DNA from: a virus
Virus record (IMG/VR): IMGVR_UViG_3300032087_006189
DNA: 64,000 nt
Reading direction: 5' to 3' (one strand)
Part shown: positions 20,024 through 37,578 of the stretch, in pieces
Layout of the letters: each line of letters opens with the position of its first letter
Numbering within the stretch: position 1 is the stretch's first letter
The notes under the pieces: model-generated
What the model was told of the DNA's origin: nothing
Database searches by the model: none
Seen by the model: the letters and a program-made list of their open reading frames with translations, nothing else
Made by a program: the position numbers and the translations under genes

Positions 20024-20030
20024 CCCTCCA

Positions 20031-20257: not shown

Positions 20258-20273
20258 CTCTTTTGGAGAGAGA

Positions 20274-20420: not shown

Positions 20421-20426
20421 TGACCT

Positions 20427-20503
20427 GCCTCGATAGCTCAGTTGGATAGAGCACCGGCCTTCTAAGCCGATGGTCCCAGGTTCGAATCCTGGTCGAGGCG
20501 CCA
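20427..20503 (+). tRNA. tRNA-Arg(UCU)
   Basis: GCCTCGA/TCGAGGC stem; CT-TCT-AA loop; CCA encoded. Confidence 0.95.
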
Positions 20504-21959: not shown

Positions 21960-22040
21960 CCCGGTAATACCTCGATCCTATCACGCGGCTCAATCAAGGG
22001 CACTTTTCCGTCATAATATTTGTAGAGAAAGGAGTCTCTG

Positions 22041-22238
22041 ATGCTGAAGAACTTTGTTGTGGTTTTCCTGATTTCCTTCATCTCCACCCTCGGCGCCATC
22101 GGCGCCGTGGTGCAGATCAACGAGCGAATGGCGGCCGATGCCGCCGTCGACTGCCGCCGTATGGCGGCACAGGCCGCCCAGTGGGAGGACCAGCAGGTCC
22201 CCCGCTGGTGCGAGAAGGTTCCGGGGTTCCGCGAGTAG
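22041..22238 (+). CDS. Small membrane protein in its own promoter-terminator cassette
   Basis: GTCATAAT at 22010, AAGGAG RBS, N-terminal TM helix. Confidence 0.7.
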   Translation: MLKNFVVVFLISFISTLGAIGAVVQINERMAADAAVDCRRMAAQAAQWEDQQVPRWCEKVPGFRE

Positions 22239-22259
22239 CGGGCCCCGGAGCCTTCGGGC

Positions 22260-22463
22260 TCACTCCTCTTTAGCCATTGCTTTTAGATCTTCGATCGGAA
22301 GCTCGAGAGTACTGAATCTGTTTTCGCATTTCAGACACAGCCTCCTGCGGTAAACTAGATCTGGCCAGTCCTCCTTGAGACGCTGCACCCATGCGGTGCT
22401 AAAAGATCCATTCTTCCTGGTTTCCAAAACCTTGGTCCTGGCCAGACACTTTGGACATTCCAC
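22260..22463 (-). CDS. NrdR-type N-terminal Zn-ribbon protein
   Basis: CPKC...TKVLETR...RRRLCLKCENRFSTLE; GTG start with GAGGTG RBS; no ATP-cone domain. Confidence 0.75.
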   Translation of the reverse strand: MECPKCLARTKVLETRKNGSFSTAWVQRLKEDWPDLVYRRRLCLKCENRFSTLELPIEDLKAMAKEE

Positions 22464-22482
22464 GCACACCTCGGAGGCACAT

Positions 22483-23010
22483 ATGCACCGCTTTGCTCTC
22501 GATCCGTACCACACCGAGATTGAGTTCAAGATCAAGCATCTCATGATCTCGACTGTCCGCGGTCGGTTCAACACATTCAATGGCTCTATGGAGAGCACCT
22601 CCCTAACCAACTTCGCAGGATCAAAGATCGAGTTTTCTTGCGAAGTTGCGAGTATCGACACCGGAGTCAAAGATCGAGACGACCACCTGCGGTCTGCCGA
22701 CTTCTTCGATGTGGAGAAGCATCCCAACATGACCTTCCGATCGACCGCGATTGTTCAAGTCGGAGATGGCTACGATGTGTCCGGGTTGCTTACAATCTGC
22801 GGAGTGTCACGGCCCGTCTGCCTTGAAGCAGAGTTCAATGGCTGCGATCAAGATGCCGAAGGCAACATGAAGTACGGCTTCGACATGGACGGAGAGATCG
22901 ACCGAAAGGACTTCGGCCTTTCCTTCCAGGCTTTTGGCGGCGCAGGCCAGATGATGGTCGGCGAGAAGGTCAAGATCCAAATCTCAGCCCAGATGATGCT
23001 GATCAAATGA
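22483..23010 (+). CDS. YceI-family lipid/polyisoprenoid-binding protein
   Basis: LDPYHTEIEFKIKHLMISTVRGRF...RDDHLRSADFFDVEKHP...RKDFGL; no signal peptide. Confidence 0.92.
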   Translation: MHRFALDPYHTEIEFKIKHLMISTVRGRFNTFNGSMESTSLTNFAGSKIEFSCEVASIDTGVKDRDDHLRSADFFDVEKHPNMTFRSTAIVQVGDGYDVSGLLTICGVSRPVCLEAEFNGCDQDAEGNMKYGFDMDGEIDRKDFGLSFQAFGGAGQMMVGEKVKIQISAQMMLIK

Positions 23011-24272
23011 TTCCTCAGTGCTTTTCCCTTCGGTCTCTACTTTACGAGCCCAGAATGTTTTTGCAGGGACTTCCTCGGACCCTGCAGATTCAGGCATGGA
23101 CTGCGGGGACCGTGCTGCTTCTCCACATGGCGATGCTGTTTTGGAAAGCACTGACAGACCCATCTCTAGTTGCCTCGTTCTTGATGGAGGCGATGTTCGT
23201 CATCGTCTTGATCCGACTCCTTCGTTTTCGCGCGCTCAAGATTCGCGACAAACTGGAGGCGATTGACAAGACAAATCTCATCGTGAGGTTTCGCACAGAT
23301 CGCACAATTATCTCCGCCAACCCGCTGTTTTGCGATATCTCCGGCTACGAAGAGTCTGAGCTGAAAGGGTTGGCGCATACATCTCTCGTACCTGAAATCG
23401 CAGCAAGCTCCGAAGAATACGAGAGGTTCTGGCAGCACCTCCTTCTGGGTAGATCACACACGGGTGTATACGAGCGGATCAAAAAAGACGGATCCTCGTT
23501 CTGGCTCCAAGCCACCTACACTCCGATCCACGATGCTTCAGGCACGATCTACGAAATCCTGAAGATCGCAACAGACTTCACGCAGCAAGCAGACGATGCG
23601 ATGAGGCTGCGGCACAAGAATACCTATCTCGAGCACGCAGCCAAGATCCTGCGGCACGACATGCACAGCGGCATCAACACATACATGCCGCGCGGGCTTA
23701 GGTCTCTCAATCGAAAGCTGACCCCGGAAATCATAAAGGAGCTGAGAATCGCTGCTCCTCTCCGGCTTCTCGAGGATGGCCTGGCTCATACGCGAAAGGT
23801 CTATGAGGGCGTGAAGGAGTTTACGAATCTCGTAAAACCCGGCGAGACGCTAAACACTGAAGAACTCGATATAGGCGAGGTTCTCAAAGAGTACCTCGAA
23901 ACAACTGAGTATAAGCGGCAGGTGGCCTTTGATCGCCTGCCCAAAGCTAGAATCAATCGAGCCCTGTTCTGTACAGCGATAGACAATCTGATTAGAAACG
24001 GGCTCAAATACAACGACTCCGACTTCAAGATGGTCGCCCTTACTATGATTGATGATTCGCATCTGGCGATCATTGATAATGGTCGAGGGATGAGCCAGGA
24101 AGACTTCGAGACATACTCGAAGCCGTATGTACGAAAGTCAGGGCAAGCCGAAGCCGGAACCGGCCTCGGGCTCAACATCTGCATCGCCATTCTTCACGAG
24201 CACGGCTTCCCCGTCACCTGCGAGCGCAGCCCAGAGGGCGTGGGTACCATCATCAAGGTCAAGATCAAATGA
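23007..24272 (+). CDS. Membrane PAS-domain sensor histidine kinase
   Basis: Two TM helices; PAS (SANPLFCDISGY...KKDGSSFW); H-box LRHDM; N box NLIRNGLKY; DNGRG; GTGLGL. Confidence 0.92.
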   Translation: MIPQCFSLRSLLYEPRMFLQGLPRTLQIQAWTAGTVLLLHMAMLFWKALTDPSLVASFLMEAMFVIVLIRLLRFRALKIRDKLEAIDKTNLIVRFRTDRTIISANPLFCDISGYEESELKGLAHTSLVPEIAASSEEYERFWQHLLLGRSHTGVYERIKKDGSSFWLQATYTPIHDASGTIYEILKIATDFTQQADDAMRLRHKNTYLEHAAKILRHDMHSGINTYMPRGLRSLNRKLTPEIIKELRIAAPLRLLEDGLAHTRKVYEGVKEFTNLVKPGETLNTEELDIGEVLKEYLETTEYKRQVAFDRLPKARINRALFCTAIDNLIRNGLKYNDSDFKMVALTMIDDSHLAIIDNGRGMSQEDFETYSKPYVRKSGQAEAGTGLGLNICIAILHEHGFPVTCERSPEGVGTIIKVKIK

Positions 24273-24700
24273 TTCGCAGCATCCTTCTCGTAGACGACGA
24301 AGATCTGTTCCACATGGTGTTTGAGGACGCGTGCAGCTATCTCGATATCGCACTCGACCTACAAGCTCTCAGCTCCGCCGATGAAGCAGACAAGCTATTT
24401 GCTGGATGGCATGTCAACCCCACTGGCAAGCCAGAGTGCGTGTTCGTCGACCTCAACATCATCGGCTCCTCATTCGATGGAATCGAGTTGATTCGGCGGA
24501 TCAATCAAGAGCACGGCAATGGCTGCGTCATTGGGATCATCTCCTCATCTTCGGACCAGCAGGAGATCAATCAAGCCAAGGCTTGTGGCGCGCAGTTCTG
24601 GCTGGTGAAGTCGGATGAGATCGAGCCCCGCCTTGAAGCGTTTCGTAAGGACTACGACGGCTTCAAGTCACGATCAGTGGATTTCAAGGTCTATCAGTGA
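24269..24700 (+). CDS. Stand-alone response regulator receiver domain
   Basis: ILLVDD, FVDLN (phosphoacceptor Asp), DGIEL, IISS, conserved Lys; no output domain. Confidence 0.9.
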   Translation: MIRSILLVDDEDLFHMVFEDACSYLDIALDLQALSSADEADKLFAGWHVNPTGKPECVFVDLNIIGSSFDGIELIRRINQEHGNGCVIGIISSSSDQQEINQAKACGAQFWLVKSDEIEPRLEAFRKDYDGFKSRSVDFKVYQ

Positions 24701-25344
24701 TCAAGTTTGACGATCATTCCTGGGCCGCGCTGATTGCTATTGCTAGCAGCAGAAACGCGTATCTGTCCGGGAATGTCGTCAAGCTGATTGATGACGAAGA
24801 AAACCCGCTGTACCGCGAGTATCTCGACACAGCGATCAATCGAGACAAGGACAAGCAGAAGCAGCGTCTTGATGTGACCAAGAAGGCCCAGAAAGAAAAG
24901 AAGAAACTAGAAGAGGCGCAACAACGAAACGACCTGTTGATGAAGCGTCTTGAAGACTCCCTTGCGAGCACAAACCTCGCCAAAGAAGAGGCAGAGCAAG
25001 CGAAGCAGGTTTCAGACAAGCTTCGTGCAGAGGCAGAACGTGCGAGGGCTGCGGCAGAAAGGGCAAAGGATGAGGTTGAGCGAGACCTTGATGTCCTACA
25101 GCGCCGCACGCAGTCTCAGCTCATGCACAACATCGTCAACTCTGCGATCCAAGTGGTCATCGGAGTGGGCGGAATCACCAGCGCGCTTTACCTTTATGTA
25201 TTGGTATTTGGGGGACCAGAAACTCAGGTGTCGATGCTTGGGAACACCTGGTCGAACATGTTCGGAATCCTCCTCACAAACAGCTTTTCGATTATTGGCA
25301 CCGTTATGGGCGTGAAGTACGCAACCGAGAAACAGGGCGAATAA
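24697..25344 (+). CDS. Coiled-coil protein with two C-terminal TM helices
   Basis: Long charged heptad region then two hydrophobic segments; coupled to the receiver gene. Confidence 0.8.
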   Translation: MIKFDDHSWAALIAIASSRNAYLSGNVVKLIDDEENPLYREYLDTAINRDKDKQKQRLDVTKKAQKEKKKLEEAQQRNDLLMKRLEDSLASTNLAKEEAEQAKQVSDKLRAEAERARAAAERAKDEVERDLDVLQRRTQSQLMHNIVNSAIQVVIGVGGITSALYLYVLVFGGPETQVSMLGNTWSNMFGILLTNSFSIIGTVMGVKYATEKQGE

Positions 25345-25360
25345 GCGTCATAATATACAT

Positions 25361-25798
25361 ATGGAAAACAATACCATGCAGGTGAAAGACCTGCGGGGGA
25401 TGCTTTCCGCCCCGATGACGGTCGGGTATCTCGCTTCTGAGGTACACGAGCTCATCGAAGCTGTGCTGGAGTGCAGCGTCGACCACATCCGTGAGGAGTG
25501 GAATGACGTGGCCTTCAGTGTCCTTTGCCTGGTGGCGCAGGCATATCCCGCGGCAGATGAGTGGCGAGTTCTTGATGGACTCGGTCGCTCGTCGTGCGAG
25601 AAGTTTCTCTCCCGGATCAATGTCTGGGTTGAGATCTGCTCGCATCACGGGGTCGACTTCGATCGCGAGTCTCTCGCGGGAGGGTCCAACTACCGCAAGC
25701 GCACGAAAGTGGCGCGGGTGTTGGGCTTCCACGAAGTTGAGGACATCGACTGGGAGTGGATTTCCACCCTGGTCGGCGGCTTCGAAGTCGAGGCGTGA
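25361..25798 (+). CDS. Hypothetical protein (weak MazG-like E/D helical pattern)
   Basis: GTCATAAT at 25347; SEVHELIEA...IREEWNDV. Confidence 0.6.
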   Translation: MENNTMQVKDLRGMLSAPMTVGYLASEVHELIEAVLECSVDHIREEWNDVAFSVLCLVAQAYPAADEWRVLDGLGRSSCEKFLSRINVWVEICSHHGVDFDRESLAGGSNYRKRTKVARVLGFHEVEDIDWEWISTLVGGFEVEA

Positions 25799-25929
25799 GC
25801 GTTCACCCAGTAAAGTGCCGCCGTTTTCGGTTGCGGTAGGGGTAGCAGGTAAAAGCTGCGCTTCCCCTTTTAGTTTGTAAAATTCTACATAAAAGAGGGC
25901 ATAAGTAAGTTGCTCAAGAGGAGGTATCC

Positions 25930-26472
25930 ATGAGCTCTTTCGCAGTCAATGCGTTTGCCCGCCGCCAGACTCCCGAGTCTGGCTTCTCCCACTTCGGTGG
26001 GACGGAATGCGAGCTTCTCGCCATCGTCGAAGAGAACTTCGGCAACGCCAATCCCGGCTACCGGGATGGTGTTGTGCTGGTCCCGGTCCCGCCGGAGGGG
26101 TTCTTCTCCGGGGTCACCACCCTCACCGCCGGCCAGAAGATGGTCGGCACCTTCGAGTCCCGTAGGGACGGCGAAGCGCCCCGCAAGCAGCTTCGTGCTG
26201 CTGAGGGCGCAAAGCTTCCCGCAGCTGCCGTTGACATCGTTCTGTACCGGAACGACGTCCTCGGCTCCGACGCCACCACGGAGGCCACCTGGGAGGTGAT
26301 CTCCATCAACGCTCGGCCAACGGCCGAGCCGGAGCCAATCCATCCGGAAACGCTGCTCCACAACCACTTCGGAAGCTCTGGGGGCACTGAGACCGGCATG
26401 ACCGATGCGGAGCTGTGCCACCAGCTCCGCGAGTCTTTCCTGTACTGGAAGGACAAGGCCATGCTGGCCTGA
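25930..26472 (+). CDS. DUF3228-like protein
   Basis: NAFARRQ...GYRDG...VDIVLY...WEVISINA...PIHPETLLHNH...SGGT; strong RBS. Confidence 0.7.
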   Translation: MSSFAVNAFARRQTPESGFSHFGGTECELLAIVEENFGNANPGYRDGVVLVPVPPEGFFSGVTTLTAGQKMVGTFESRRDGEAPRKQLRAAEGAKLPAAAVDIVLYRNDVLGSDATTEATWEVISINARPTAEPEPIHPETLLHNHFGSSGGTETGMTDAELCHQLRESFLYWKDKAMLA

Positions 26473-26531
26473 TTCTCAAGAGGGGCCGATTCGTCGGTCC
26501 CTCTCCCATGTTTTCACCAAAGGAGGCCATC

Positions 26532-26819
26532 ATGGCTGAAACTGTCGTCGTCACTCGCCATGCTGCGTATGTGCAGCACCTCATCAACATCGGGCTCATC
26601 GAATCCGGCTGCGAAGTCGTCGGACACGCCACAGCCGAGACTGTGGCAGGGAAACATGTGATCACCAGCGGCTTGCCGCTGCACCTTGCCGCGCTTGCGG
26701 CGAAGCTCACGACTGTGGGCCTCTTTCTGCCGCCCGAGCTCCGCGGCAAGGAACTCACCCTTGAGGAGGTGGCCGCGCACGCGCAGCCGCCCGCGTCCTA
26801 CGTCGTCACTGCGGCGTAG
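26532..26819 (+). CDS. Csx16 (Cas_VVA1548)-like protein, candidate ring nuclease
   Basis: VVTRH...LPLHLAA...LPPELRGKELTLEE signature; AAGGAGG RBS. Confidence 0.75.
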   Translation: MAETVVVTRHAAYVQHLINIGLIESGCEVVGHATAETVAGKHVITSGLPLHLAALAAKLTTVGLFLPPELRGKELTLEEVAAHAQPPASYVVTAA

Positions 26820-26906
26820 TGGCCCGCCCTCCGGGGCGGGCAGGGCCTTCGGGCCCTTCGTTAGCCCGTACTCCGTGTTACGTGGCAGGGCTTTTGGAGT
26901 CCTATC

Positions 26907-27089
26907 ATGTTCCTCATCCTACTCTTCGCCTTCGATCAACCCAAGCCACCTGAGTGCGTCATTGACCAGTGCGAGGCAGAAATCTGCCTTGTTGATACCC
27001 CAGAGGGCATGGTCTCTGTTCCCAAGAAACGCCACTACAAAGAGGGCACCCCAGTGGAGTGCCCTCTGTACCTGATTGAGCCTACCTGA
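26907..27089 (+). CDS. Small Cys-containing protein
   Basis: GGAG RBS; 60 aa. Confidence 0.55.
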   Translation: MFLILLFAFDQPKPPECVIDQCEAEICLVDTPEGMVSVPKKRHYKEGTPVECPLYLIEPT

Positions 27090-27908
27090 CTACCACTCGT
27101 CGAGGAGTGTGTAGCTGAAGGTGGCGCGGCCAGTCTTCTCGACCTGCATGTGTGCGAGTTCCATCATGCGGGCGAAGCCGACCTGAGTGGCATGGACCTG
27201 ACAGCCTGCAGACCACTTGTTGACCTGAGTAGACTCACCGCCGACTCGCTGAGTCGCGGCGTGCAAGTTGATGCCGTACAGACCGCGGACGATGGTAGCG
27301 GGGTCCATGTCAAGGTTGTTGTCCCGGTTGGAGTCTCGGTAGACGCGAACCTCACCGTTCCGCTGACACAGGGCGGTGTACTTTCCACCGTGCTTGTCGA
27401 TCTTCCACACATCAAGGTACTGGCCCTCTACAAGAATGGCTGTCCCGGACGACTTGCTGGGGTTTTCCAGCCAGTAGGTTCCGGGGTCGGTGGTTCCGGG
27501 CCAGTACTCTACATTGCAGGTACCGCCTTCATCAAACCACGCACAGCCGAGGGTGTCGTCAAATGCGTTTGCTTCACGGCTGGGGCTGCGGATGCCAAAG
27601 AGCCAGAGTCGGTAAGGTGTGTCCCACACCTGATGCCCCAGCTCTTGCGCCTTCTTCATCACGGGAGGAAGACCCTCTGATTGGATGGTGATGCTGGGCT
27701 TTGAGGAGGCCATCAGCTCTGCCCAAGTACCCCGACCGATGATGCCGTCGGCATCCAGCCCCTTTGCCCGCTGAAAGGCAACAGCTGCAGCCGCAGTTCC
27801 TTTCCCGAAGATCCCGTCTACATCGCAGGTGAAGCCGTGCTCATTCAGCTTCTGCTGTGCGAGCTTGACTGCGTCACCACGAGATCCAACTTTTACCAAC
27901 TGCATCAT
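27090..27908 (-). CDS. Putative endolysin: peptidoglycan-binding domain + His/Cys (L,D-transpeptidase-like) catalytic domain
   Basis: PG_binding_1 pattern (GSRGDAVK..Q..L...DGIFGKGT..AV.AFQ...DGIIG..TW); GINLH...WSAGCQV. Confidence 0.75.
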   Translation of the reverse strand: MMQLVKVGSRGDAVKLAQQKLNEHGFTCDVDGIFGKGTAAAAVAFQRAKGLDADGIIGRGTWAELMASSKPSITIQSEGLPPVMKKAQELGHQVWDTPYRLWLFGIRSPSREANAFDDTLGCAWFDEGGTCNVEYWPGTTDPGTYWLENPSKSSGTAILVEGQYLDVWKIDKHGGKYTALCQRNGEVRVYRDSNRDNNLDMDPATIVRGLYGINLHAATQRVGGESTQVNKWSAGCQVHATQVGFARMMELAHMQVEKTGRATFSYTLLDEW

Positions 27909-27969
27909 GCCTCCAAAAAGTGGGCGTTTGGGGTCATAAGCAGTGTAACCATAGACAGGAGGTATATCT

Positions 27970-28413
27970 ATGGAAGAAACTCACGACTACAAGCTGGATC
28001 GCTCCAAGTGGCCTGCGGGACCGTGGGACGAAGAGCCTGCTGACAAGGTCAACTGGATCGACCCGGAAACGGGACTCGATTGTATGATGCTCCGAAATGG
28101 CCTCGGCGCGTGGTGCGGGTACGTCGGGCTCCCGCCTGGACATCGTCACCACGGCACCGAGTACGGCGAGCTGTACTCGTTCTACAATGATGTGCACGGA
28201 GGACTGACCTACAGCGACTCTTGCTCTGGACACATTTGCCATGTCCCAGAAGAAGGTCGTCCAGACAATGTCTGGTGGGTGGGATTCGACTGCAGCCATC
28301 TGGGCGACCGGGCCCCAAATGACTACGGATGGCGCAATGGGACGTACTGCACCCAGGAGTACGTGAAGAAGGAAGTCGAGATGCTCGCCAAGCTGGTCTC
28401 GGCTTTCCGGTGA
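27970..28413 (+). CDS. Conserved phage hypothetical protein
   Basis: WCGYVG...VHGGLTY...WWVGFDCSH; promoter motif at 27933; AGGAGG RBS. Confidence 0.8.
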   Translation: MEETHDYKLDRSKWPAGPWDEEPADKVNWIDPETGLDCMMLRNGLGAWCGYVGLPPGHRHHGTEYGELYSFYNDVHGGLTYSDSCSGHICHVPEEGRPDNVWWVGFDCSHLGDRAPNDYGWRNGTYCTQEYVKKEVEMLAKLVSAFR

Positions 28414-28613
28414 ACAACTACGAGGCCGCGATGATCGCCGAGGGGGTCATGGAACCCCCCGGCGACACGCCAGAAAAGAGAGAGGCCGCGTACATCGCTG
28501 CGTGGCAAAAGCTCATCGACACAGGCCTTGCATGGGAACTGCAGGGCTGGTTCGGTCGTCGCGCTAAGCAGATGATTGAGGAGGGACTATGCAAGTCCGC
28601 ACCTCGCACGTAG
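28410..28613 (+). CDS. Conserved small phage protein
   Basis: AAWQKLIDTGLAWELQGWFGR; GTGA overlap with the upstream stop. Confidence 0.7.
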   Translation: MNNYEAAMIAEGVMEPPGDTPEKREAAYIAAWQKLIDTGLAWELQGWFGRRAKQMIEEGLCKSAPRT

Positions 28614-28873
28614 TCGCCGTCCTATCACTCACCGCTCTCCCGGTGCTGTTTCTTATGAGCCGGGTGGAGGACTCTCTCCGAGAGATGCAGGCGAGTGTGG
28701 ACACGAAGGTCACGCTGGCGCAGGGCAAGGCTTCATACCTGCCCGGCGCCGCGTGCGTCATTGCAGCTTCGCCAGAACAGACCCCGGCGGACATCGTCAA
28801 CTTCGCGCGGGCATGCGCGAAGTCACACGAGCTTTGGCTCGAGGAGAATGCAGATGGACGAGAAGATCGTTGA
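28589..28873 (+). CDS. Small membrane-anchored protein
   Basis: N-terminal TM helix; GAGGGA RBS. Confidence 0.65.
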   Translation: MQVRTSHVVAVLSLTALPVLFLMSRVEDSLREMQASVDTKVTLAQGKASYLPGAACVIAASPEQTPADIVNFARACAKSHELWLEENADGREDR

Positions 28874-29024
28874 CCGCTGCTGGTCCTGCGGCGGAAACAT
28901 GGTGGAACGAGAATCTCCGACCATCATCGTGGTCGCCTGTGACCGCAAGGGCTGTCCTGCGGTCTACACGAAGAAGAAGAAGCGTAAATCGTAAAATACA
29001 CGCGTTTTGCGTCATAATAGATGT

Positions 29025-29805
29025 AGAGAGAAGGTGTAAGCCTTCGTGACGCGGAGCCATCAGTTTGGCGCAAGCTCCGTGTGCCGCGCCCCGCTCCCAG
29101 CCTCCAGGTGTACCCGGGCTGGGGATCAAGCGGAAAGCTGCTACGGCAGTGAGATTGTGTACACCCGGCTGACCCGGCCGTAAGGTAGTGGATCGGATCT
29201 ACCAGGGCATCTTTTCGGCTGCTCAGCAGCTGCCCCTTCGGGGGAACGGCCTGTGCTTCGGGCAGCTGCCCCCTTCGGGGGGAACGGGCAACCTCTTGAG
29301 CAAGAGGCAAAACTGCTCCCGTCGCGCAAGCTCCGGTCACCCTTGAGGTGTGAATACGCAAGCGAGGAACAAAGACCGCCCTCGTAAAAACCAGTCTTCG
29401 TCCCCTATCCAGTGCGGGGATCGGCCTTCGGGCAAGAACGGGAGATCGGGCCTAACAAGCCCCCTTCTGGATCCATCTGGGATGAGCGCACAGAGCACCC
29501 GAAATAAAGCATGGAGGCGGTAGCGCTCGCTGCAATTCTGCAGCACCCGGGGCCCTTCGGGGCCCTGGGCCCTCATCTATAAATCCCTCAAACGCTGCGA
29601 CCAAATGAGGGTGAAAAGGTCGCTCGCTCGTGGTGCAATAAACTCTGCTCCCGCCACGAGCTTTCAGCCAATTGGCGAAATGGGGAGCCATACAAAGCCG
29701 TCGATCCCGTACGCATTCACGGGGGAGGCTTTTACCACCCGGGCAGGAATGCGTGCCCATTTACAACCTGAAGGGGGGAGAGCTACCACTCTCCCCCCTT
29801 CTTTT
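29025..29805 (+). ncRNA. Large structured non-coding RNA (~780 nt), unassigned class
   Basis: GTCATAAT promoter motif at 29011 with no RBS or ORF after it; dense hairpins with UUCG/UACG loops; pseudoknots; kissing loop; terminator at 29770-29805. 5' end approximate. Confidence 0.8.
29770..29805 (+). terminator. Intrinsic terminator of the ncRNA
   Basis: GAAGGGGGGAGAG/CTCTCCCCCCTTC 13-bp stem + TTTT. Confidence 0.85.
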
Positions 29806-29861
29806 AAATAATGCTTCTTTTAGGCTATAAGATACTGCAACCCAACAATAGGAGTACTGAT

Positions 29862-30140
29862 ATGGCCCCAGAAATTGAGTGGTGCGGCGAGATTGATGTT
29901 CCTGATGACATCCTGGCAATCGCCAACAAGTACAAAAGCTCGGTCCTGTTTATGGGGGCGCTGTCCTATCACGGACACCCAAAGTACGCAGAAGAGCTGT
30001 GGGAACAGGCTTCGGAAAGCGCGCGTGACCGCATGCTTCGCGCGGGAGTCCTGAGGGAGTTCCTCAAGACTGGAGACGAGATGGAGAGGACGTACTCAAA
30101 TGCGTTCTTCATGACGCAGGGCATTGACCTACGGCTCTAA
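29862..30140 (+). CDS. Hypothetical protein
   Basis: AGGAG RBS; MAPEIEWCG... Confidence 0.7.
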   Translation: MAPEIEWCGEIDVPDDILAIANKYKSSVLFMGALSYHGHPKYAEELWEQASESARDRMLRAGVLREFLKTGDEMERTYSNAFFMTQGIDLRL

Positions 30141-30201
30141 AAAACAGCCAATAAACCGCCATAATATAAATACCCAAGAGAGACATAGTAAGGAGGTCAT
30201 C

Positions 30202-30675
30202 ATGGGTTTCAGCAAGAGTGACAAGCGCGCCGCCGAGACCTTCGGCGGAATCTTCACCAACGCGATGACCGCCATGGGCGAAGTCATCGCGAAGGTCCGC
30301 GACATCGACATGAACGGACTGGAAAGCTCCGACAAGAAGGAGGTGCTGCTCGGAGAGCAGCGCGCTCAGGTAGAAATCATGAAGGACACCAACGAGACCG
30401 CGATGGGAATCTTTGAGAAGGTTCTGCCGCTGGCTCTCCAGATGGGCAACGAGGTGGCGGAGCAGAACCGGCAGCGCTCCAAGGCCCGCATGATGGAAGC
30501 AGAGGCCCGCCTCATCGAGGCACGGGCACGCGCGGCCGAGGTCGAGGTGAAGCGGCTGAATGCCCAGAGCGAGCGCCTCAAGGCGACCCGGCTCCGCGGG
30601 TGGGGCGGAGATGTCGCTCCGGACGAGGAGGAGCTTGCAGAGTACTACACGAGCAAGAAGACCGTGGAGTGCTGA
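30202..30675 (+). CDS. Hypothetical coiled-coil protein
   Basis: GCCATAAT at 30158, AAGGAGG RBS, terminator hairpin downstream. Confidence 0.75.
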   Translation: MGFSKSDKRAAETFGGIFTNAMTAMGEVIAKVRDIDMNGLESSDKKEVLLGEQRAQVEIMKDTNETAMGIFEKVLPLALQMGNEVAEQNRQRSKARMMEAEARLIEARARAAEVEVKRLNAQSERLKATRLRGWGGDVAPDEEELAEYYTSKKTVEC

Positions 30676-30720
30676 GTGAAAGGTGCGGGCCCCTTCGGGG
30701 GCCCGCCCTCCGTGGGCGAA

Positions 30721-31932
30721 CTATTTAGCTGCCTGTTGGTCCTTGTAGCGCTTGTACGCAAGTCCTGCTCCGATTCCGCCAAGCCCAAGGGCTCCACCAA
30801 TCAGCAGCTTCTTACTGATCGGCGACAAGGTTCTTGACGAGGCTGCCGGAATGGATGCCGGAATGGTTCGAGGGGCCGAGGAAGAGTACTCGATTGTCCC
30901 AAGGTTGTCCGCGATCCGCGCCGCATCTGCGGCCACGCTTCGTCGCGCACGACTACGGGCACTCTCCCCCAGTATCGGCCTCAGTCCGCCTTGAGCGCGC
31001 TGCTTCCGCAGCTTATCGACAAAAGTTTCCTGCCGAACCTTTCCGCCTCGGACTTTCTTCTTTTGTCGGGAGCCGGGCTTTCCATCGCCGAAGGATTCGC
31101 GAACGCGCCGCTTGTCTGAATCCATCAGTTTAAAGATGTCGTCGGACTCCGATGCATTTGGGTAATATCCGCCGGTACCGTACATCTTTCCTTCGGCGGC
31201 CAAACGATTAAAGCGTTCTTGATCGTCAACAATGAAGTCTACAACCTTCATGTTGCCGCTCGGAGTAATCATCATATTGCCGGGGTGGGCTACTCCGTAC
31301 CTATGGAGGTAGACATCTCGAAGGTTGTAACCTCCGATGCCGTTATTCACCAGTTCTCTATTTGCACGTTCCTGGGCCTCCCGCGCAAAATTATCTGCTA
31401 GGAAGCTATCATTTCGAGTCCACTTCGGATTGTACGTTTGAGCGTTGTCGAGATCTTGTCCTTGGACATACTCCTTGAGCATGTAGCCATAGCCGCCGCG
31501 GTTTTTTCGGGCCTCCCCCTTGGTGTAGATCTTGCCAAAAGCGGAGTCCCCCTCCAAGGCCTCTCCTACGCGAACCTTCCGATCTTCTTGACCAGGGACG
31601 TAGAGCTTGCCTTGGCGATCATAGGTCTTTCGGATTGCGACTTGATCTGGCGCATCCTTTGCTCCAATGACCAAGTCTGCGATGCCTTCGGCGCCGCCCG
31701 CTATCCTCCCGCGACCCTTGCGTCGGCCCTTTCCTACTTCTCCGGGATTGACCAGAAAGGTCCCCTCTTCGGAGTTCTTCAAGACACCCGCGGCTTGGAG
31801 CTGCTGGGCAAGCTCATTGGCTTCGTCGACCTTTCCCTCTCGCAAGAGCTTGCGCAGCTCCTTGATCTGGCGAGGAGCTGCAAGTTTGCGCATTTCGGAG
31901 GCATAAGCTGTTTTGAGGAGGCCGTATTTCAT
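30721..31932 (-). CDS. Protein-kinase-like protein with KxA leader and C-terminal TM anchor
   Basis: IAGGAEGIA (Gly loop), VAIRK, EYVQG, D...HPGN, KVVDF; leader MKYGLLKTAYASEMRKLAA; C-terminal LLIGGALGLGGIGAGLAY. Confidence 0.65.
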   Translation of the reverse strand: MKYGLLKTAYASEMRKLAAPRQIKELRKLLREGKVDEANELAQQLQAAGVLKNSEEGTFLVNPGEVGKGRRKGRGRIAGGAEGIADLVIGAKDAPDQVAIRKTYDRQGKLYVPGQEDRKVRVGEALEGDSAFGKIYTKGEARKNRGGYGYMLKEYVQGQDLDNAQTYNPKWTRNDSFLADNFAREAQERANRELVNNGIGGYNLRDVYLHRYGVAHPGNMMITPSGNMKVVDFIVDDQERFNRLAAEGKMYGTGGYYPNASESDDIFKLMDSDKRRVRESFGDGKPGSRQKKKVRGGKVRQETFVDKLRKQRAQGGLRPILGESARSRARRSVAADAARIADNLGTIEYSSSAPRTIPASIPAASSRTLSPISKKLLIGGALGLGGIGAGLAYKRYKDQQAAK

Positions 31933-32209
31933 AGGTCTTCCAGGAGGAGTGAATGGACGATTGGTACCCATTGGTCGTGATTGTATACCTTCACGACATC
32001 CCCAGCAATCCAAAGGACATCCGCAGAGAGCGGACCATGGGGATCTTCTACATTCAGGAAATCGACGACTTTACAGAAGTTGCTGAAATCCTATCACCAG
32101 ACATGGTTGAGCGCTTTGGCGGCAATCCAAATATCAAGAAGGTGACTGTATCTCGAAACAGGATGGTTCCCTTCTGGAGGGGCGACGCTCTAAAAGTAAC
32201 GCAAAATCC

Positions 32210-32227
32210 GTCATAATATAGATAGCC
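32210..32227 (+). promoter_or_regulatory. Representative copy of the recurring promoter-like motif GTCATAA(T/G), here GTCATAATATAGATAGCC
   Basis: Identical 18-mer at 32704 and 34879, near-identical at 35923 and 37178. Core also at 2756, 22010, 25347, 27933, 29011, 35427, 36419, 37534, 38053, 40290, 48030, 56863, typically shortly upstream of an RBS. Confidence 0.85.
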
Positions 32228-32252
32228 AAGGACAATACTAAGGAGGTGCCTC

Positions 32253-32642
32253 ATGGCTATCGAACAATACGAGCTTCAAGTCCGCCGTGCCCGTCGCGCG
32301 TTCCTCGCTGCTCGCGATGATCACGACCGCTGGAATCTGCCCAGCACTGAGCGCAAGCTCAAGAAGACCCGACAGGAGCTGGACTGGGCGGTGGAAGATC
32401 TCCGCCGGGCAGAGCGCCGAGCAGAGCGCCGGGAGGTGCGGGCGTACTTCTACGACCCCGCCGACAAGGAGCGGCTCATCCGCGAAGGCGAACGGGCCAT
32501 GGACGAGCGTCGCCGAGAGATCTTCCGCAAGGAGGCTGCCCGGCAGAAGGGGGTCGCGGATGCCAACCTGGCCGCGGGCGCTGCCGTCGCTGGTGGCCTC
32601 GCACTGGCCGCCCTCGTCGGGTTCCTGGCGGGCGACGACTGA
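32253..32642 (+). CDS. Hypothetical protein with C-terminal TM helix
   Basis: Cassette gene with promoter motif, AAGGAGG RBS and double hairpin terminator. Confidence 0.8.
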   Translation: MAIEQYELQVRRARRAFLAARDDHDRWNLPSTERKLKKTRQELDWAVEDLRRAERRAERREVRAYFYDPADKERLIREGERAMDERRREIFRKEAARQKGVADANLAAGAAVAGGLALAALVGFLAGDD

Positions 32643-32735
32643 GATGGGGGCCCTTCGGGGCCCCCGGCCCTTCGGGGCCAGTTTTTAAGTGTTGGTTTTT
32701 TGCGTCATAATATAGATAGCCACAAGGAGGTACTC

Positions 32736-33041
32736 ATGGCTATTCCTGAATGGGTTGAAGAGATTCCTGTCGAGCATCAGCCAGCCGCGCTCGCGCTGCT
32801 GGCCGGACCTGAAGAGGTCCGAGTTCTGCTCGAGAGGGCAGCAGCAGAGCGGGAGATGGGAAAGATCAACACGGAGCCTCCAGAATGGGTTCTGCGGGCA
32901 GTTCGAGACCTGCGCCCGCTGTCCCGGAAGTTCATTGTCCGCTGCTTTGCGGAGGTCGGACTCGACTTTCCCGAAAATGACTGGACCCGGAGCCTCGGCT
33001 TCGGAGACGGCTGCAACTGGACTCCTATCATCACCAACTGA
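32736..33041 (+). CDS. Hypothetical protein
   Basis: Promoter motif at 32704; AAGGAGG RBS. Confidence 0.75.
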   Translation: MAIPEWVEEIPVEHQPAALALLAGPEEVRVLLERAAAEREMGKINTEPPEWVLRAVRDLRPLSRKFIVRCFAEVGLDFPENDWTRSLGFGDGCNWTPIITN

Positions 33042-33050
33042 GGAAGTACG

Positions 33051-33281
33051 ATGGGCATGTTTTCGATTCGAGAGGCTCGTGAAATCAACGAGCTGAAGAA
33101 GACCCCGGAAGAGATCCCTGCGGAGGGCAGTCTCCAGTTTCTTCCATACGGCGATACCTACGCCGAATGGGAGGAGCCCAAGCCGTCCATGAGCAAGGAG
33201 GAGCTCGAGCAGGTTTATCAGAACCTGCTTGAAGCTGCGGGGATCGCAGAAACTGCGGTTTCCGCGACAAATCGCTGGTAA
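33051..33281 (+). CDS. Hypothetical protein
   Basis: GAGG RBS; GAAA-loop hairpin after the stop. Confidence 0.7.
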   Translation: MGMFSIREAREINELKKTPEEIPAEGSLQFLPYGDTYAEWEEPKPSMSKEELEQVYQNLLEAAGIAETAVSATNRW

Positions 33282-33401
33282 GGATGCGGGCCCCGAAAGG
33301 GGCCCGCACTCCGCAGGCGACTGCCTTAGCTCTACATAGTAGATGGAAAAAGGGGCATTAATCGGGCATAACTGCATTGCCACATAAATATAGGAGGCAG
33401 T

Positions 33402-33947
33402 ATGCAGAGAGCACCGTATGGGTACGACCCAACGCAGAAGGTGCGGGAGTTTCGAGGTCGGGTTCGAGAGGGAAATCTCCTTCTCGCGCAGCACATTGTA
33501 GTTCCCATCAAAGAGGGGGGACTGGCCTACGGCAGCGTATCTACGCAGTTCCTATCTCTTTACCCGGGAGTTGAGATTCCAGACCTGGAGTTCCGGCAGG
33601 CACGCACAATCGTCCTTGATCGAGAGCACGGCAGGACGGTGACCTTCGTGTGCTTTTGGAACGACAACGTAAAGTACGACGCAAACCACATCTCAATCTG
33701 TGCGAATCGAGCAATCGTCTCGTTTAGCACCGCCTGTATGATGGATCCTGAGCGGTTCAACATCAGGTGGCTTGATGAAGACCGGACCCTGTCTCTTCCC
33801 CTGTTCAAGGGATGCGAGGGGAGCCCACACAATGTGGCCTGCCTCGAGGTTGAGATCTGCGATACGCAGGAAAGACTGGATCGCGGCGTCATCTGTCCGT
33901 GCGAAGTCGAGATTGTAGTGCGGAACAAGGAAAGGGTTCCCTCTTAG
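33402..33947 (+). CDS. Hypothetical protein
   Basis: AGGAGG RBS; 181 aa. Confidence 0.75.
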   Translation: MQRAPYGYDPTQKVREFRGRVREGNLLLAQHIVVPIKEGGLAYGSVSTQFLSLYPGVEIPDLEFRQARTIVLDREHGRTVTFVCFWNDNVKYDANHISICANRAIVSFSTACMMDPERFNIRWLDEDRTLSLPLFKGCEGSPHNVACLEVEICDTQERLDRGVICPCEVEIVVRNKERVPS

Positions 33948-34855
33948 AGGTAGTCCACCCCTTCAAGGTTCCGCACAAACCGCTCCTCCACTTCCTGTGG
34001 GCCCACTGGTTGCGCTCCCGCAAGAAACCTTTGGGCCCACGCCTTGGCCTTTCTGGCCTTCTCGGTGCCGCCCAAGGTCTCGTCGAGCATCTCCGGGAAC
34101 TCGTCTGCAGGGATGTCCTCAATAGACTCCGCGGCGTCCAGAAGCCCGATTTGGCGCATGCGTGCTTCCAGCATCGCCGCGCGCCGTGCTTCCTGTCGGG
34201 CAGGGCTTTGTGCCCATTCGATTCCGTGCTCGTCCACCTGTCGCAGCAGGGTGGGCAGATTCGGTCTGCGCGATGGATTCAAGATTGCAATGTCGCCCTC
34301 TCCCAGTTGGTAATCCCCTCGAACACGGGCCAACATGGGTGCTCTTTTACCTGTCGCTTGGTGAACTCCGCCCAAGATGAGCTTCTGCTGGTCATCCTTG
34401 CTCAGCCTTTCGAGATTTGCGAAGATTCCTTCTGAGTCTCGACTTGCAAAGAATCGATCTCCTGCGTCCTCGTACCCGAACCCTCTCCCGAAATAGACGT
34501 CTTTGAGTCCTGGGGGCGTGTACTGGGCGCGCTCTCCAACACTTCCCGGGATCGCACCGTCTCGCAGGATCTTTTCCATTGCGGGGAGGCCGCCGTAGGT
34601 CGTGTCGTGAGTCAAGAAGCCGCGGTCTGTTACATATTTACTGAGAAAAGAGTCGGTTTCCGGTATTGCATCTCGGTACCCCTTGAGCAATCGACGGAAC
34701 TGCGGGACCGCATCTGATTCACTGACCAGAGTCCGAAGTTTTTTGGGAATCGCTGCGAGCTTCTCAAGCTCATCTACAAAAAACTGGAATGTCGCGGTGT
34801 CCATGCCGGCCCTCTTTGGCGCCATACTAACATGTGGGAAGAGATTCGTACTCAT
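33944..34855 (-). CDS. Putative virion cargo protein with FFVDELEKLA leader; possible ADP-ribosyltransferase-like fold
   Basis: Leader motif; LTHDTT...KILRDGAI...DVYF resembles the H-x-T...IL..G...VYF pattern of ART folds. Confidence 0.55.
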   Translation of the reverse strand: MSTNLFPHVSMAPKRAGMDTATFQFFVDELEKLAAIPKKLRTLVSESDAVPQFRRLLKGYRDAIPETDSFLSKYVTDRGFLTHDTTYGGLPAMEKILRDGAIPGSVGERAQYTPPGLKDVYFGRGFGYEDAGDRFFASRDSEGIFANLERLSKDDQQKLILGGVHQATGKRAPMLARVRGDYQLGEGDIAILNPSRRPNLPTLLRQVDEHGIEWAQSPARQEARRAAMLEARMRQIGLLDAAESIEDIPADEFPEMLDETLGGTEKARKAKAWAQRFLAGAQPVGPQEVEERFVRNLEGVDYL

Positions 34856-34919
34856 TTGTTAATTTAGGGAGTATTTCTGTCATAATATAGATAGCCAAGA
34901 ACAACAGTTGAGGTGTTTC

Positions 34920-35249
34920 ATGGCCCATGGAGAAGCTGGAATGTACTGGGATATGATTTGCTGTGCCTACAGCTACCAGGACACCGCCCCGGCAGCCGGG
35001 ATGGAGATCGGTCGCCTCCTCTGGGAGGGGAGCGGGGCGGTGCTGTTCGTCCCAGCGACCAGCACCAGCCGGGGGCGGCTGTTCTGCTCTGGCGCCTGCC
35101 AGAGCAGCCACCTGTTCGTCTCCCACAGCCTGTCGGCGGAGATCGTCGAGGGGCTGATCGCTGCCGCGAGGCAGCAGTGTGGAGAGGACGACTGGCAGTC
35201 GTATGTGGGGGACTTTTTCGGTGTGGCGCTGGAGCAGCGCTGCGCCTAA
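34920..35249 (+). CDS. Hypothetical protein
   Basis: Promoter motif at 34879; GAGG RBS. Confidence 0.7.
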   Translation: MAHGEAGMYWDMICCAYSYQDTAPAAGMEIGRLLWEGSGAVLFVPATSTSRGRLFCSGACQSSHLFVSHSLSAEIVEGLIAAARQQCGEDDWQSYVGDFFGVALEQRCA

Positions 35250-35378
35250 CCAAGGAGGTCATATGACCTGCCCAATTTGTCACGAGTTCATACTCGTCCC
35301 ATTCAACAAATGCCGGTGCGACCCCGAGCGCCAGAAGCTCGCCTGGCAGAGAAAGCGGGAGAAAGAGAAGAAGTAGGG

Positions 35379-35931
35379 GAAAGCAAGTCCAGGGGGACCG
35401 CTGCTTTTTAACTTATACATTTTTGGGTCATAATAATAGTAGTGAGGAAGGATCAACACCCCCTTTCTCCCTGGAGTGAATATGTCCACTATCCGCGGAA
35501 ACATCTTCATCGTCCCAAACCGAGCCTGTCAGCTTGAGGACTGGTTCGCCCAGTCCACTCGCGACAGCTTTCGCAAGAGTCTGAGCAACCTCGGGCTGAA
35601 GCCTGAAGGCAAGCTGGTTCAGGTCTGGTACACGTCGCAGGACTGCGAAAACTGGACCAGCCACAGGTGGCCTGAAAACCCCGAGTTCTTCGGGGCGCAC
35701 GGACTCCCAGAGAGGCTCCCGGAGTCCCTGCTCGAGGGAGTCAAGGAGGGCGACGAGATCTCCCTCCACTTCGGCGAGAAGACTCTCAGGCTGACGGCTA
35801 CTCAGAAGAGCTACCGCTACGCGCGGTTCGGGACGTTCGAGGAGACCTTCGAGCTCGTCACCTCGTGAGAGAAAAAGCAAGTCCACTGGGGACCTCTGCT
35901 TTTTAACTCATACATTTTTTGGGTCATAATA
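35379..35931 (+). repeat. ~57-bp imperfect direct repeat (terminator + promoter) flanking one gene; copies at ~35379-35435 and ~35873-35931
   Basis: aaagcaagtcca..ggggacc.ctgctttttaact.atacattttt.gggtcataata present twice. Confidence 0.9.
35482..35868 (+). CDS. Hypothetical protein
   Basis: Lies between the direct repeats; GGAG RBS. Confidence 0.75.
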   Translation: MSTIRGNIFIVPNRACQLEDWFAQSTRDSFRKSLSNLGLKPEGKLVQVWYTSQDCENWTSHRWPENPEFFGAHGLPERLPESLLEGVKEGDEISLHFGEKTLRLTATQKSYRYARFGTFEETFELVTS

Positions 35932-35963
35932 TAGATAGTCAAGAGCAAAACAAGGGAGGTCTC

Positions 35964-36356
35964 ATGACTATCGGAACTTACTCTGCCAGCTACACCATCA
36001 ACTCTCAACTGGTCCTTCGGGACTGGTTCCACCGGAAGGAGCGCGAGCTCTTTCTGGCGGAAGGGAGGTTGGACCGCCTCACCCACAAGGCGCGGTGGGC
36101 GCCGATCGACACTCCTATGGAGGAGTGGATCGTCCTGTTCCAAGAGAGGGACGAGGCCCTGGGAAGGGTCTACCAGCTACACAACGAGCTGGACTCTCTG
36201 TACGATATCCTCACCGACAGCGGATACCGCTGTCGAATGTACGTCGGGTGGGGGAAACACCGGCCAAAGTCGGAGGAGGAACACCGCGAGGGGCTCCTGA
36301 AGTGGATCAAGAAGAGATCTACTCCGGGGTGGGATCCATTCGGGGATGAGTACTGA
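35964..36356 (+). CDS. Hypothetical protein
   Basis: Promoter motif at 35923; GGGAGG RBS; UUCG terminator. Confidence 0.75.
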   Translation: MTIGTYSASYTINSQLVLRDWFHRKERELFLAEGRLDRLTHKARWAPIDTPMEEWIVLFQERDEALGRVYQLHNELDSLYDILTDSGYRCRMYVGWGKHRPKSEEEHREGLLKWIKKRSTPGWDPFGDEY

Positions 36357-36456
36357 GAGGGGCCTTCGGGCCCCTCTCTGGGTGGGGCATTTCTTTAGCT
36401 AAAATATCCCAGTTTTCCGTCATAAGACCTTTGCAACCATACAAAGGAGGTTTGCA

Positions 36457-36789
36457 TTGACGTTTCAGCAGTATCTGAAGATCCACCTTCCAGGCGCGAT
36501 GAAGATGGAGAAGGGAAAGAAGCGACTCCGCAAGAAGAAGGCGAAGAAGGACTTGATTGAGCGGTGGGAACTGCTCGAGGAGGTTCGGATTCTCGAGGAG
36601 CGGAAGCGCGCCGCAATCGAGATTCTGGAGGCCGAGGGGATTCCCTACAAGCACTTGCTGAAGCCGAAGGATGACTACTTCAGCAGCTTTCTCATGGAGG
36701 CTGCGATGGAGTCTGCCATGGGTGCAATCACGGACGCATTCTGCTCCATTCCGCGACGACGCTACCCAACGCAGGTGCCAAAGTCGTAG
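36457..36789 (+). CDS. Hypothetical basic protein
   Basis: Promoter motif at 36419; AAGGAGG RBS; TTG start. Confidence 0.65.
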   Translation: MTFQQYLKIHLPGAMKMEKGKKRLRKKKAKKDLIERWELLEEVRILEERKRAAIEILEAEGIPYKHLLKPKDDYFSSFLMEAAMESAMGAITDAFCSIPRRRYPTQVPKS

Positions 36790-36854
36790 GAAGCTCTCAA
36801 CGAGCAGGGGGCCGTGTAGGGGCATCAGGCCCCTTTTTAGCCCATATTTTCTTC

Positions 36855-37041
36855 ATTAAGTAAAAATGGCCCCCAAAAATATCTGGCAGTGGGGTTTGCA
36901 GTAGGGAAACGCATCTCTTGTGTGTGGTGTGCGGTTTGGCGTGTGTCTCTTTCTCGTGATTTTTTCTATTAAGTAAAACAACCCGCCCACAATGTGTACC
37001 CGTGGGTGTTGTCTTTCTCCAGTTTTTTTCCATTAAGTAAA
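36855..37041 (+). repeat. Three dispersed direct repeats ATTAAGTAAA, each after a T-rich run, in an AT-rich intergenic region
   Basis: Copies at 36855, 36968 and 37032. Confidence 0.8.
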
Positions 37042-37248
37042 TTACCCCCATAGCGATGGGGACCCCTGTGACCCACGTAAGTAACGCAGAGACCCTTCAA
37101 TAGGTTCCTAACGCTATACGCCAGAGGCTTGGCCTTTTGGCCTATAGGGCCTGTATTCTAAAAAACAAAGATATTCGGTCATAATATAGATGGAGAAGAA
37201 GCAGAGCATGTTGCGCTGTGGACCTCCTTGTTTGCATTGGAGGGCATC

Positions 37249-37458
37249 ATGCCTATTGAGATTACTATTGCTGCAGACGGTGTGGAAGAGACGCGCTTTG
37301 TTCCCGAATCCACCAACAGCCGCTTGAAGAAGCAGCTGGCCCGTAAGAAGCATGGGTGGTGGGCTGTGAATGGTCGCGGAGAGATGGTGCGAATCAAAGC
37401 GCGGAACATCTGGGAGGGTGCAGCACAGCTGAAGGAGGAAGGTGGTCGCCACGACTGA
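37249..37458 (+). CDS. Hypothetical protein
   Basis: GGAGG RBS; promoter motif at 37178. Confidence 0.65.
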   Translation: MPIEITIAADGVEETRFVPESTNSRLKKQLARKKHGWWAVNGRGEMVRIKARNIWEGAAQLKEEGGRHD

Positions 37459-37578
37459 TGGCGGTCGCCTCCTCCTTCGGCTCCGCCGAAGTTTAGCCCA
37501 TACATCCCATATTCTAAAAAAGGGGCATTTCGCGTCATAATACCTGTACCCGGGAAACAATAACCAAGGAGGTTTTCC

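Follow-up and report, generated by a model that had tools for sequence, protein, structure and literature searches.

Only a handful of large structured RNA classes have been described from phages, none of which, to our knowledge, has an assigned function. The closest described systems are ROOL and GOLLD (RF03087 and RF01998), phage-encoded RNAs of hundreds of nucleotides (nt) that are rich in pseudoknots, contain covarying kissing loops and have no known partner or function; their kissing loops proved to be intermolecular (PMC12286853). In the lysine and other kink-turn riboswitches, a kink-turn adjoins a loop-loop contact directly upstream of an intrinsic terminator (PMC3082890, PMC4316175); kink-turns position the tertiary contacts of riboswitches, and the lysine riboswitch has a contact between loops L2 and L3 (PMC4316175, PMC3082890). 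The phi29 pRNA is a phage-encoded structured RNA of ~170 nt with two complementary, covarying loops, whereas the bacterial Y RNAs (YrlA) and the tRNA-like domain of tmRNA exemplify modular non-coding RNAs (ncRNAs) that embed a tRNA-like element. Here we describe a structured RNA gene (positions 29011-29805, + strand) in a 64,000-nt stretch of phage DNA, IMG/VR record IMGVR_UViG_3300032087_006189, hereafter the window. Judged by sequence and covariance-model comparison, the RNA family is previously undescribed: it matches no Rfam family, GOLLD and ROOL included.

Like ROOL and GOLLD, the RNA is phage-encoded, hundreds of nucleotides long, rich in pseudoknots and equipped with covarying kissing loops, but it matches neither in sequence or structure, its conserved core is much smaller (~290 nt), and it lies 9 kb from a tRNA cluster, within an array of early-gene cassettes, instead of beside such a cluster. 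The 3' part recalls the kink-turn riboswitches, from which the RNA differs in lacking an Rfam match, a five-way junction and any recognisable antiterminator, in carrying a large additional 5' double-pseudoknot core and an optional 480-nt insert, and in that a separate promoter serves the downstream gene in at least one variant. Two complementary, covarying loops are shared with the phi29 pRNA; however, pRNA is restricted to phi29-like podoviruses and forms its loop pairs from one molecule to another at the portal, whereas no pRNA match was found here and the topoisomerase II, ligase and tRNA cluster denote a large myovirus-like phage context. Finally, one variant (L047, see below) embeds a tRNA-like element as Y RNAs and tmRNA do, but this module is present in only one of five variants and scores 27.2 bits, below the tRNA gathering cut-off of 29; no Ro/Rsr gene was seen near the RNA locus.

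Relatives and non-coding status of the RNA gene

DNA similarity searches against 50,697 deposited phages gave no match, and the large subunit of the phage topoisomerase II was at most ~45% identical to its counterparts among the matches listed. IMG/VR contains relatives with a 54-72% identical topoisomerase, the best of which, G001 (164.6 kb), shares its gene order with most of the window. Closer relatives were found among metagenome contigs through exact-protein look-ups of homologues of the flanking genes. These contigs from related phages provided four further variants of the RNA, so that five distinct variants of 353 to 981 nt are available: three long forms, in the window (29011-29805, 795 nt), L046 (3156-3944, 789 nt) and L047 (1651-2631, 981 nt), and two short forms, in L040 (3157-3593, 437 nt) and L039 (480-832, 353 nt). 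An identical model score suggests that L057 carries the L039 variant as well.

When the window, G001 and all other fetched loci were searched with a covariance model of the 5' core (R1), only the five members and the apparently identical L057 copy were recovered, and ten related IMG/VR records yielded no further members. BLAST and nhmmer searches of the related IMG/VR records and of the whole of G001 with the RNA returned only short matches to GC-rich hairpins. A search of viral contigs with the downstream 92-amino acid (aa) protein returned nothing, and the upstream 147-aa protein led to two viral contigs, neither with an RNA match by nhmmer. Similarly, the exact terminator pattern was not found in viral contigs, nor were the exact P4-P5 and central-pseudoknot patterns (see below) in viral, JGI metagenome or GTDB genome contigs. 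Thus, as far as could be searched, the family is confined to a small clade of uncultivated large phages.

A reading of the DNA made from the sequence alone (the sequence-only reading) had proposed a large ncRNA gene at this position, and all eleven motifs that it named were recovered at the positions it gave. The gene is headed by the putative promoter element GCGTTTTGC-GTCATAAT (29002-29018, + strand), which is conserved in all five variants and over-represented in the window. There, GTCATAAT occurs 11 times, every time on the + strand, against 0.59 copies expected; the copies span 22010-37541, with one more at 56323, and head about ten small-gene cassettes. In nine of the ten other copies, those at 22-37.5 kb, a start codon follows ~20-70 nt downstream and a ribosome-binding site (RBS) is visible in most cases. 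As the sequence-only reading had observed, the copy at 29011 differs from these nine in that neither an RBS nor a credible open reading frame (ORF) follows it. Transcription of the RNA probably starts near 29024-29026, and the sharing of the promoter motif is what suggests early expression. The proposed 13-base pair (bp) terminator at the end of the structured stretch also holds: the sole terminator-like site within the stretch is a GC-rich stem-loop followed by a U-tract, as in Rho-independent terminators, with a 13-bp stem (29770-29801, 9 G-C pairs), a 6-nt loop and TTTT (29770-29805, + strand). It is kept in all variants and is unique in the window. Neither promoters nor further terminators were found inside the stretch, and a terminator scan detected no U-tract after any of the internal hairpins.

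Comparison of the variants demonstrates that the stretch is non-coding. Gene callers placed no gene in the gap, either in identical contigs or in any variant, and the region is crossed only by short ORFs, all without an RBS. The three long variants differ by 1- and 2-nt indels scattered along the RNA, the frame of the short ORFs over the terminator changes from variant to variant, as read from the alignments, and no start codon or reading frame is common to the variants. The strand is fixed as + by an excess of G.U over A.C cells in the aligned helices (12 versus 3); the UUCG loops, promoter and terminator are also all on the + strand.

The density of hairpins noted in the sequence-only reading is far beyond that of shuffled DNA, with 36 perfect 6-bp local stems compared to 11.8 +/- 4.3 (maximum 22) in 300 dinucleotide shuffles. 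The minimum free energy of the window RNA corresponds to a folding z-score of -3.7 relative to shuffles. The tetraloops are likewise present, three cUUCGg and one cUACGg, each closing a stem of at least 4 bp. Scanning the whole window against Rfam 15 with cmscan at gathering thresholds yielded only five tRNAs. A permissive scan of 28900-29900 (E <= 10) gave only noise: absent were GOLLD, ROOL, OLE, HEARO and raiA, as well as tmRNA, RNase P, 6S, riboswitches, group I/II introns and pRNA. None of these families was matched by the homologues either (E <= 0.1), and tmRNA was found neither with Rfam nor with ARAGORN. Of the two affiliations that the sequence-only reading had considered, membership in GOLLD or ROOL (RF01998, RF03087) thus has to be abandoned, as there is no covariance-model match, and a new class of large structured ncRNA is borne out, the RNA being structured, non-coding, encoded on the + strand and without an Rfam family.

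Fold and modular architecture

The ~780-nt unit of the sequence-only reading stands as the extent of the gene in the window, but not as the conserved unit, which corresponds to a ~290-nt core; two of the natural variants measure no more than 353 and 437 nt. The short forms align to positions ~37-208 and 683-795 of the window RNA and have the end of the 5' core, CCAGGGCA, only 13-14 nt ahead of the start of the 3' domain, CGATCCCG. Because the short forms join the two parts with so little between them, the conserved unit, as delineated from the alignments, is a ~170-nt 5' core of five hairpins and two pseudoknots plus a ~110-nt 3' domain. The two parts always occur together in the variants.

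In a plain MAFFT alignment of the 5' core, 90.5% of the cells are paired, against 34-41% when the partners are slid by 1-3 columns, and 11 pairs have changed on both sides, compared with 1-3 after sliding. The core is preceded by a variable 5' hairpin, P0 (GAAGG/CCTTC, 29030-29045), which measures 16 nt in the window, is much longer in the other variants and reaches ~130 nt in L040. P1 (29049-29057 with 29074-29082) is paired in all cells and shows only G-U to A-U changes, and its loop forms the first pseudoknot, PK1, in which GGCGC (29067-29071) pairs with GCGCC (29086-29090) in 96% of the cells. In L046, another hairpin replaces P1, and its loop GGCUC can pair with GAGUC just before P2, which, as read from the alignment, would preserve the PK1 topology. 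P2 (TCCCAGCC/GGCTGGGG, 29095-29124) has four pairs changed on both sides, and its loop provides the 5' arm of the second pseudoknot, PK2, in which GGTGTAC (29107-29113) pairs with GTACACC (29159-29165). PK2 is paired in 97% of the cells, and three of its seven pairs have changed on both sides (UA to CG, GC to AU and AU to GC). This tertiary pairing, one of three that the sequence-only reading had proposed, is therefore upheld by compensatory changes in the homologues and forms an H-type pseudoknot of 7 bp.

The cUACGg-capped P3 (29137-29150) has a hairpin counterpart in all five variants, with the stems GCUGC, UGCAC and AUCUGC; it was judged from separate folds, since both the MAFFT and the model-fitted alignments misplace it by one column in the short forms. 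P4 (29166-29180) carries a conserved 7-nt loop, TGACCCG, on a closing pair that changes from C-G to G-C. P5 (GGTAG/CTACC, 29184-29209), with the conserved loop TGGNTCGG and followed by an invariant AGGGCA, has three pairs changed on both sides and all cells paired. L046 keeps the same 5'-core helices at only 60% sequence identity to the window. A pairing of a conserved CCAGGG with CCCUG of the P0 extension is possible in four variants and impossible in the window, and was not adopted.

The hairpin capped by UGRCCCG recurs: besides 29166-29180 in the window, it is found at L040:3200 and L040:3435, L040 having an additional copy in its 5' extension, and at L050:2936, in a more distant locus described below. 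Its 4-5-bp stem covaries as CGGC, GGGC and GCGC. Among the phage loci checked it is confined to these RNAs, with 0.36 chance matches expected per 64 kb, and it is a candidate protein-binding or tertiary-contact module.

In the 3' domain, 93.9% of the cells are paired, against 52-70% when the partners are slid. The domain contains a kink-turn motif, recognised by sequence consensus at 29697-29729 (+ strand; motif definition of PMC5061560) and present together with hairpin H1 in all five variants. The C-stem (GCC 29697-29699 with GGC 29727-29729) is followed by the 3-nt bulge GTC, the G.A/A.G pairs (29703-29704 with 29725-29726) and the H1 stem (TCCCGT 29705-29710 with ACGGGG 29719-29724). Across the variants, the layout is RCC, a GUC, GAC or UAC bulge, GA and the H1 stem, with GA and then GGY on the return strand; the C-stem covaries, its outer pair being G-C, G-U or A-U, with one G.A in L047. 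The second hairpin, H2 (GGGCA/TGCCC, 29741-29758), is replaced in the short forms by GUGGUG/CACCAC at the same place. The loops of H1 and H2 are complementary, CGCATTC (29712-29718) to GAATGCG (29747-29753), to a degree rarely reached in loop shuffles (p = 0.0016 for the window and 0.003 for L046). Moreover, CGCAUUC/GAAUGCG in the window and L047 corresponds to GCACUC/GAGUGC in L046, including a U-A to C-G double change, so that the loop-loop pairing of the sequence-only reading is kept by compensatory change. Between the short-form loops the complementarity shrinks to 4-5 bp (CGCC(C)/(G)GGCG); for loops so rich in C and in G, respectively, this is not significant. We favour an intramolecular contact between the H1 and H2 loops, because kink-turns position such contacts in riboswitches. 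A helix that would enclose the entire 3' domain is kept in L039 (CUACG/CGUAG), fails in L040 and was rejected.

The long forms differ from the short ones by a central expansion of ~480-640 nt, which in the window is an insert of ~480 nt (29210-29690, + strand) that is absent from L040 and L039. The insert is 96.4% identical to the window in L046 and 93.9% in L047, compared with 74% and 77% at four-fold degenerate sites in the flanking genes; such identity would fit either strong constraint or recent exchange. In L046 this near-identical centre stands beside the divergent 5' core. Given the near-invariance, only two compensatory changes were found, both in local hairpins of the insert. In this little-varying sequence lie also the two larger candidate pairings of the sequence-only reading, the putative CTCCCGT/ACGGGAG closure of a multi-branch domain and a possible H-type pseudoknot (29585-29623). 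The pseudoknot sequence is present but invariant in the three variants that carry it, at least one such interleaved pair of 6-bp stems occurs in 37% of the shuffles, so that by itself it does not exceed chance expectation, and the TGAGGG arm has a second possible partner, CCCTCA, at 29570. The insert also includes a hairpin module duplicated with a 36-nt spacing (29226-29287, + strand), which is single-copy in L046. A group I or II intron reading of the insert was rejected, with neither an Rfam signal nor a split gene, and such an identity is only remotely possible.

Several further pairing options were noted in the window. An exact 12-nt repeat, GCGCAAGCTCCG, is present in the strand shared by P1 and PK1 (29068-29079) and in the insert (29324-29335), and a 14-nt repeat, CTGCTCCCG.C.CG, occurs at 29313-29326 and 29645-29658; both may permit alternative pairings or be traces of a duplication. 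RNAalifold pairs 29409-29433 (AGUGCGGGGAUCGGCC) over ~20 bp with 29695-29718, the 5' half of the kink-turn and H1 region. This predicted pairing would compete with H1 and the loop-loop contact and is a possible conformational switch of the long forms.

Flanking genes and turnover at the locus

Upstream, the RNA promoter is preceded in the window, L046, L047 and L040 by a gene for a 46-aa protein with four cysteines, resembling a zinc ribbon (28854-28994 in the window, + strand), with 16 nt separating its end from GTCATAAT; L057 has a 93-aa gene interposed. No terminator was found between the four-cysteine gene and the RNA, so that transcripts of the upstream operon should also run into the RNA. 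Downstream, a 92-aa all-helical protein (29862-30140, + strand) has a homologue after the RNA in all five variants. Its structural model consists of six helices (pLDDT 68), with no Pfam family and no PDB fold match at E < 1, and it thus gives no hint of a partner. The 56-nt spacer between terminator and gene (29806-29861) is nearly identical in the window, L046 and L047 and includes TGCTTC ~11-12 nt upstream of TAAGAT, an arrangement resembling that of T4 middle (MotA-box) promoters. In L039 and L057, a clear GTCATAAT promoter separates the RNA terminator from the gene of the 92-aa homologue. The cluster of five tRNA genes (Thr, Ser, Gln, Met and Arg) lies at 19863-20503, ~9 kb upstream of the RNA gene.

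The tRNA-like element of L047 (L047:2262-2404, 143 nt) resides in the insert. It comprises an acceptor stem of 7 bp, a D arm and a T arm with GGUUCGAGUCC; a branched stem stands in place of the anticodon arm, and relative to the tRNA model ~75 nt are inserted in the anticodon loop. The element folds with a z-score of -3.6, and neither a tRNA nor a tmRNA was called by ARAGORN. Elsewhere in the same contig (L047:4620-4718), a run of Ns lies between two copies of the repeat GGGAACAGCTCGAGGGGGA... and is either an assembly gap or a masked stretch. In the more distant loci L050 and L051, the zinc-ribbon gene likewise precedes this promoter and leader (90% identical over 31 nt), beyond which lies an otherwise unrelated 683-nt non-coding stretch (L050:2590-3272, identical in L051:1591-2276) with a folding z-score of -4.9 and a UUCG terminator. 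The one element that it shares with the family is the UGRCCCG-capped P4 hairpin. The stretch may represent another ornate RNA at this site. G001, which also uses GTCATAAT (8 copies on the + strand and 2 on the - strand at 147-158 kb), has at the corresponding site after the zinc-ribbon gene (151250-151723, L034:11250-11723) a cassette for a 157-aa alanine-rich protein with a hairpin-containing leader. This protein cassette at the position of the RNA illustrates cassette replacement at the site.

Function of the RNA and alternative explanations

We consider it fairly likely that the gene produces a stand-alone, trans-acting folded RNA which serves, most probably, as a protein-binding scaffold or decoy early in infection. 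The RNA would be made from the promoter type shared with the neighbouring cassettes of the early region and would end at its own intrinsic terminator. Its five 5'-core hairpins would be locked by the two pseudoknots, and the kink-turn would bend H1 such that its loop pairs with that of H2 just ahead of the terminator. The folded RNA would then act in trans by binding one or more host or phage proteins, for which the kink-turn and the recurrent UGRCCCG loop are the likeliest contacts. That the RNA is an independent gene is argued by the promoter motif shared within the window and by the GTCATAAT promoter that follows the RNA terminator in L039 and L057. The sequences compared establish the non-coding status, the strand, the helices, PK2, the loop-loop contact and the modularity; that the RNA is transcribed, that its loops meet within one molecule and that it binds protein we infer.

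Several observations weigh against this interpretation. In neither of the two small flanking proteins (46 and 92 aa) can an RNA-binding fold be recognised. In L040, the downstream 98-aa gene starts 15 nt past the terminator, with its RBS 7-8 nt past the terminator and no promoter in between, and the promoter-like TATAAGAT motif of the spacer does not recur in the window, so that some read-through coupling is possible. Furthermore, the closest sizeable relative, G001, encodes both flanking proteins and has no detectable RNA homologue, and five distinct sequences from two or three lineages make for thin covariation statistics.

The read-through coupling bears directly on whether the RNA is instead a cis-acting leader, that is, a riboswitch or a protein- or RNA-sensing attenuator in which the core and kissing domain govern the terminator and the read-through into the downstream gene. 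The promoterless gene of L040 would fit such a leader, as would the high conservation in three variants of a post-terminator spacer whose promoter-like motif is non-recurrent, the presence of kink-turn and loop-loop elements known from riboswitch aptamers, including that of lysine (PMC4316175, PMC3082890), and the invariant CGGGGGAGG beside H1, which resembles the 5' arm of the terminator. However, reading the alignments revealed no conserved segment complementary to that arm in all variants, and hence no recognisable antiterminator; a canonical promoter stands between RNA and gene in L039 and L057, with the gene directly downstream only in L040; no riboswitch family is matched; and known riboswitches do not resemble an arrangement in which an optional insert of 480-640 nt, once including a tRNA-like module, separates the putative sensor from its platform. 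Such a leader is therefore unlikely. Somewhat less credit can be given to a self-assembling, RNA-only particle in the manner of ROOL and GOLLD, whose kissing loops provide the intermolecular precedent (PMC12286853) and in which the H1 and H2 loops would pair between molecules to form rings or cages. The complementarity of these loops does covary, and sequence alone cannot separate intra- from intermolecular pairing; but the RNA matches neither family, the loops lie 22 nt apart beside a kink-turn, a geometry that also allows intramolecular contact, and the short forms retain only 4-5 complementary loop bases.

The independent behaviour of the modules raises the question of whether the transcript is a precursor that is cut into several small RNAs, with the 5' core, central modules and 3' domain as separate products. 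The insert is missing from two variants, the 36-nt-spaced module is reduced to one in L046, which also joins a very divergent 5' core to a near-identical centre, and the tRNA-like module of L047 is of the kind that RNase P and RNase Z normally excise. Against this, the 5' core and 3' domain of the short forms, only 13-14 nt apart, always co-occur, and the lack of internal promoters or terminators also speaks against separate products, which makes a precursor very improbable. Hardly credible is a non-functional origin, either as a hairpin-rich spacer of decayed promoter and terminator cassettes or as a missed small-protein gene. UUCG-capped GC hairpins do serve as terminators throughout the early region, and the central GGGGCCC-UUCG hairpin is similar to them. 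Yet compensatory changes were found in six helices, the conservation exceeds that of synonymous sites, and the internal hairpins are without U-tracts; a small-protein gene is contradicted by the frame-breaking indels and by the want of a common start codon or frame.

Beyond the trans-acting RNA that we favour, a broader proposal, rather doubtful at present, is that the site just after the zinc-ribbon gene hosts ornate RNAs and evolves fast. The family would then be a new modular class, built from a double-pseudoknot core and a kissing domain guided by the kink-turn, that accepts large expansions, including a tRNA-like module. It would act as an RNA weapon, for instance as a decoy for a nuclease of the host, for a defence that targets tRNAs or for an immune protein that senses RNA, or else as a self-assembling particle. 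Turnover of ornate RNAs at one and the same site among the early genes would be in keeping with an RNA weapon in phage-host conflict or such a particle, and the tRNA-like insertion and the replacement of the RNA in a relative hint at conflict-type pressure on the locus. The narrow known distribution of the family limits this claim for now. Nevertheless, minimal (353 nt) and expanded (up to 981 nt) natural versions, a compact core with two pseudoknots, a textbook kink-turn consensus beside a covarying loop-loop contact and a defined promoter and terminator make the RNA tractable for structural work and partner pull-downs, and thus an entry point to the roles of early-expressed phage RNAs.

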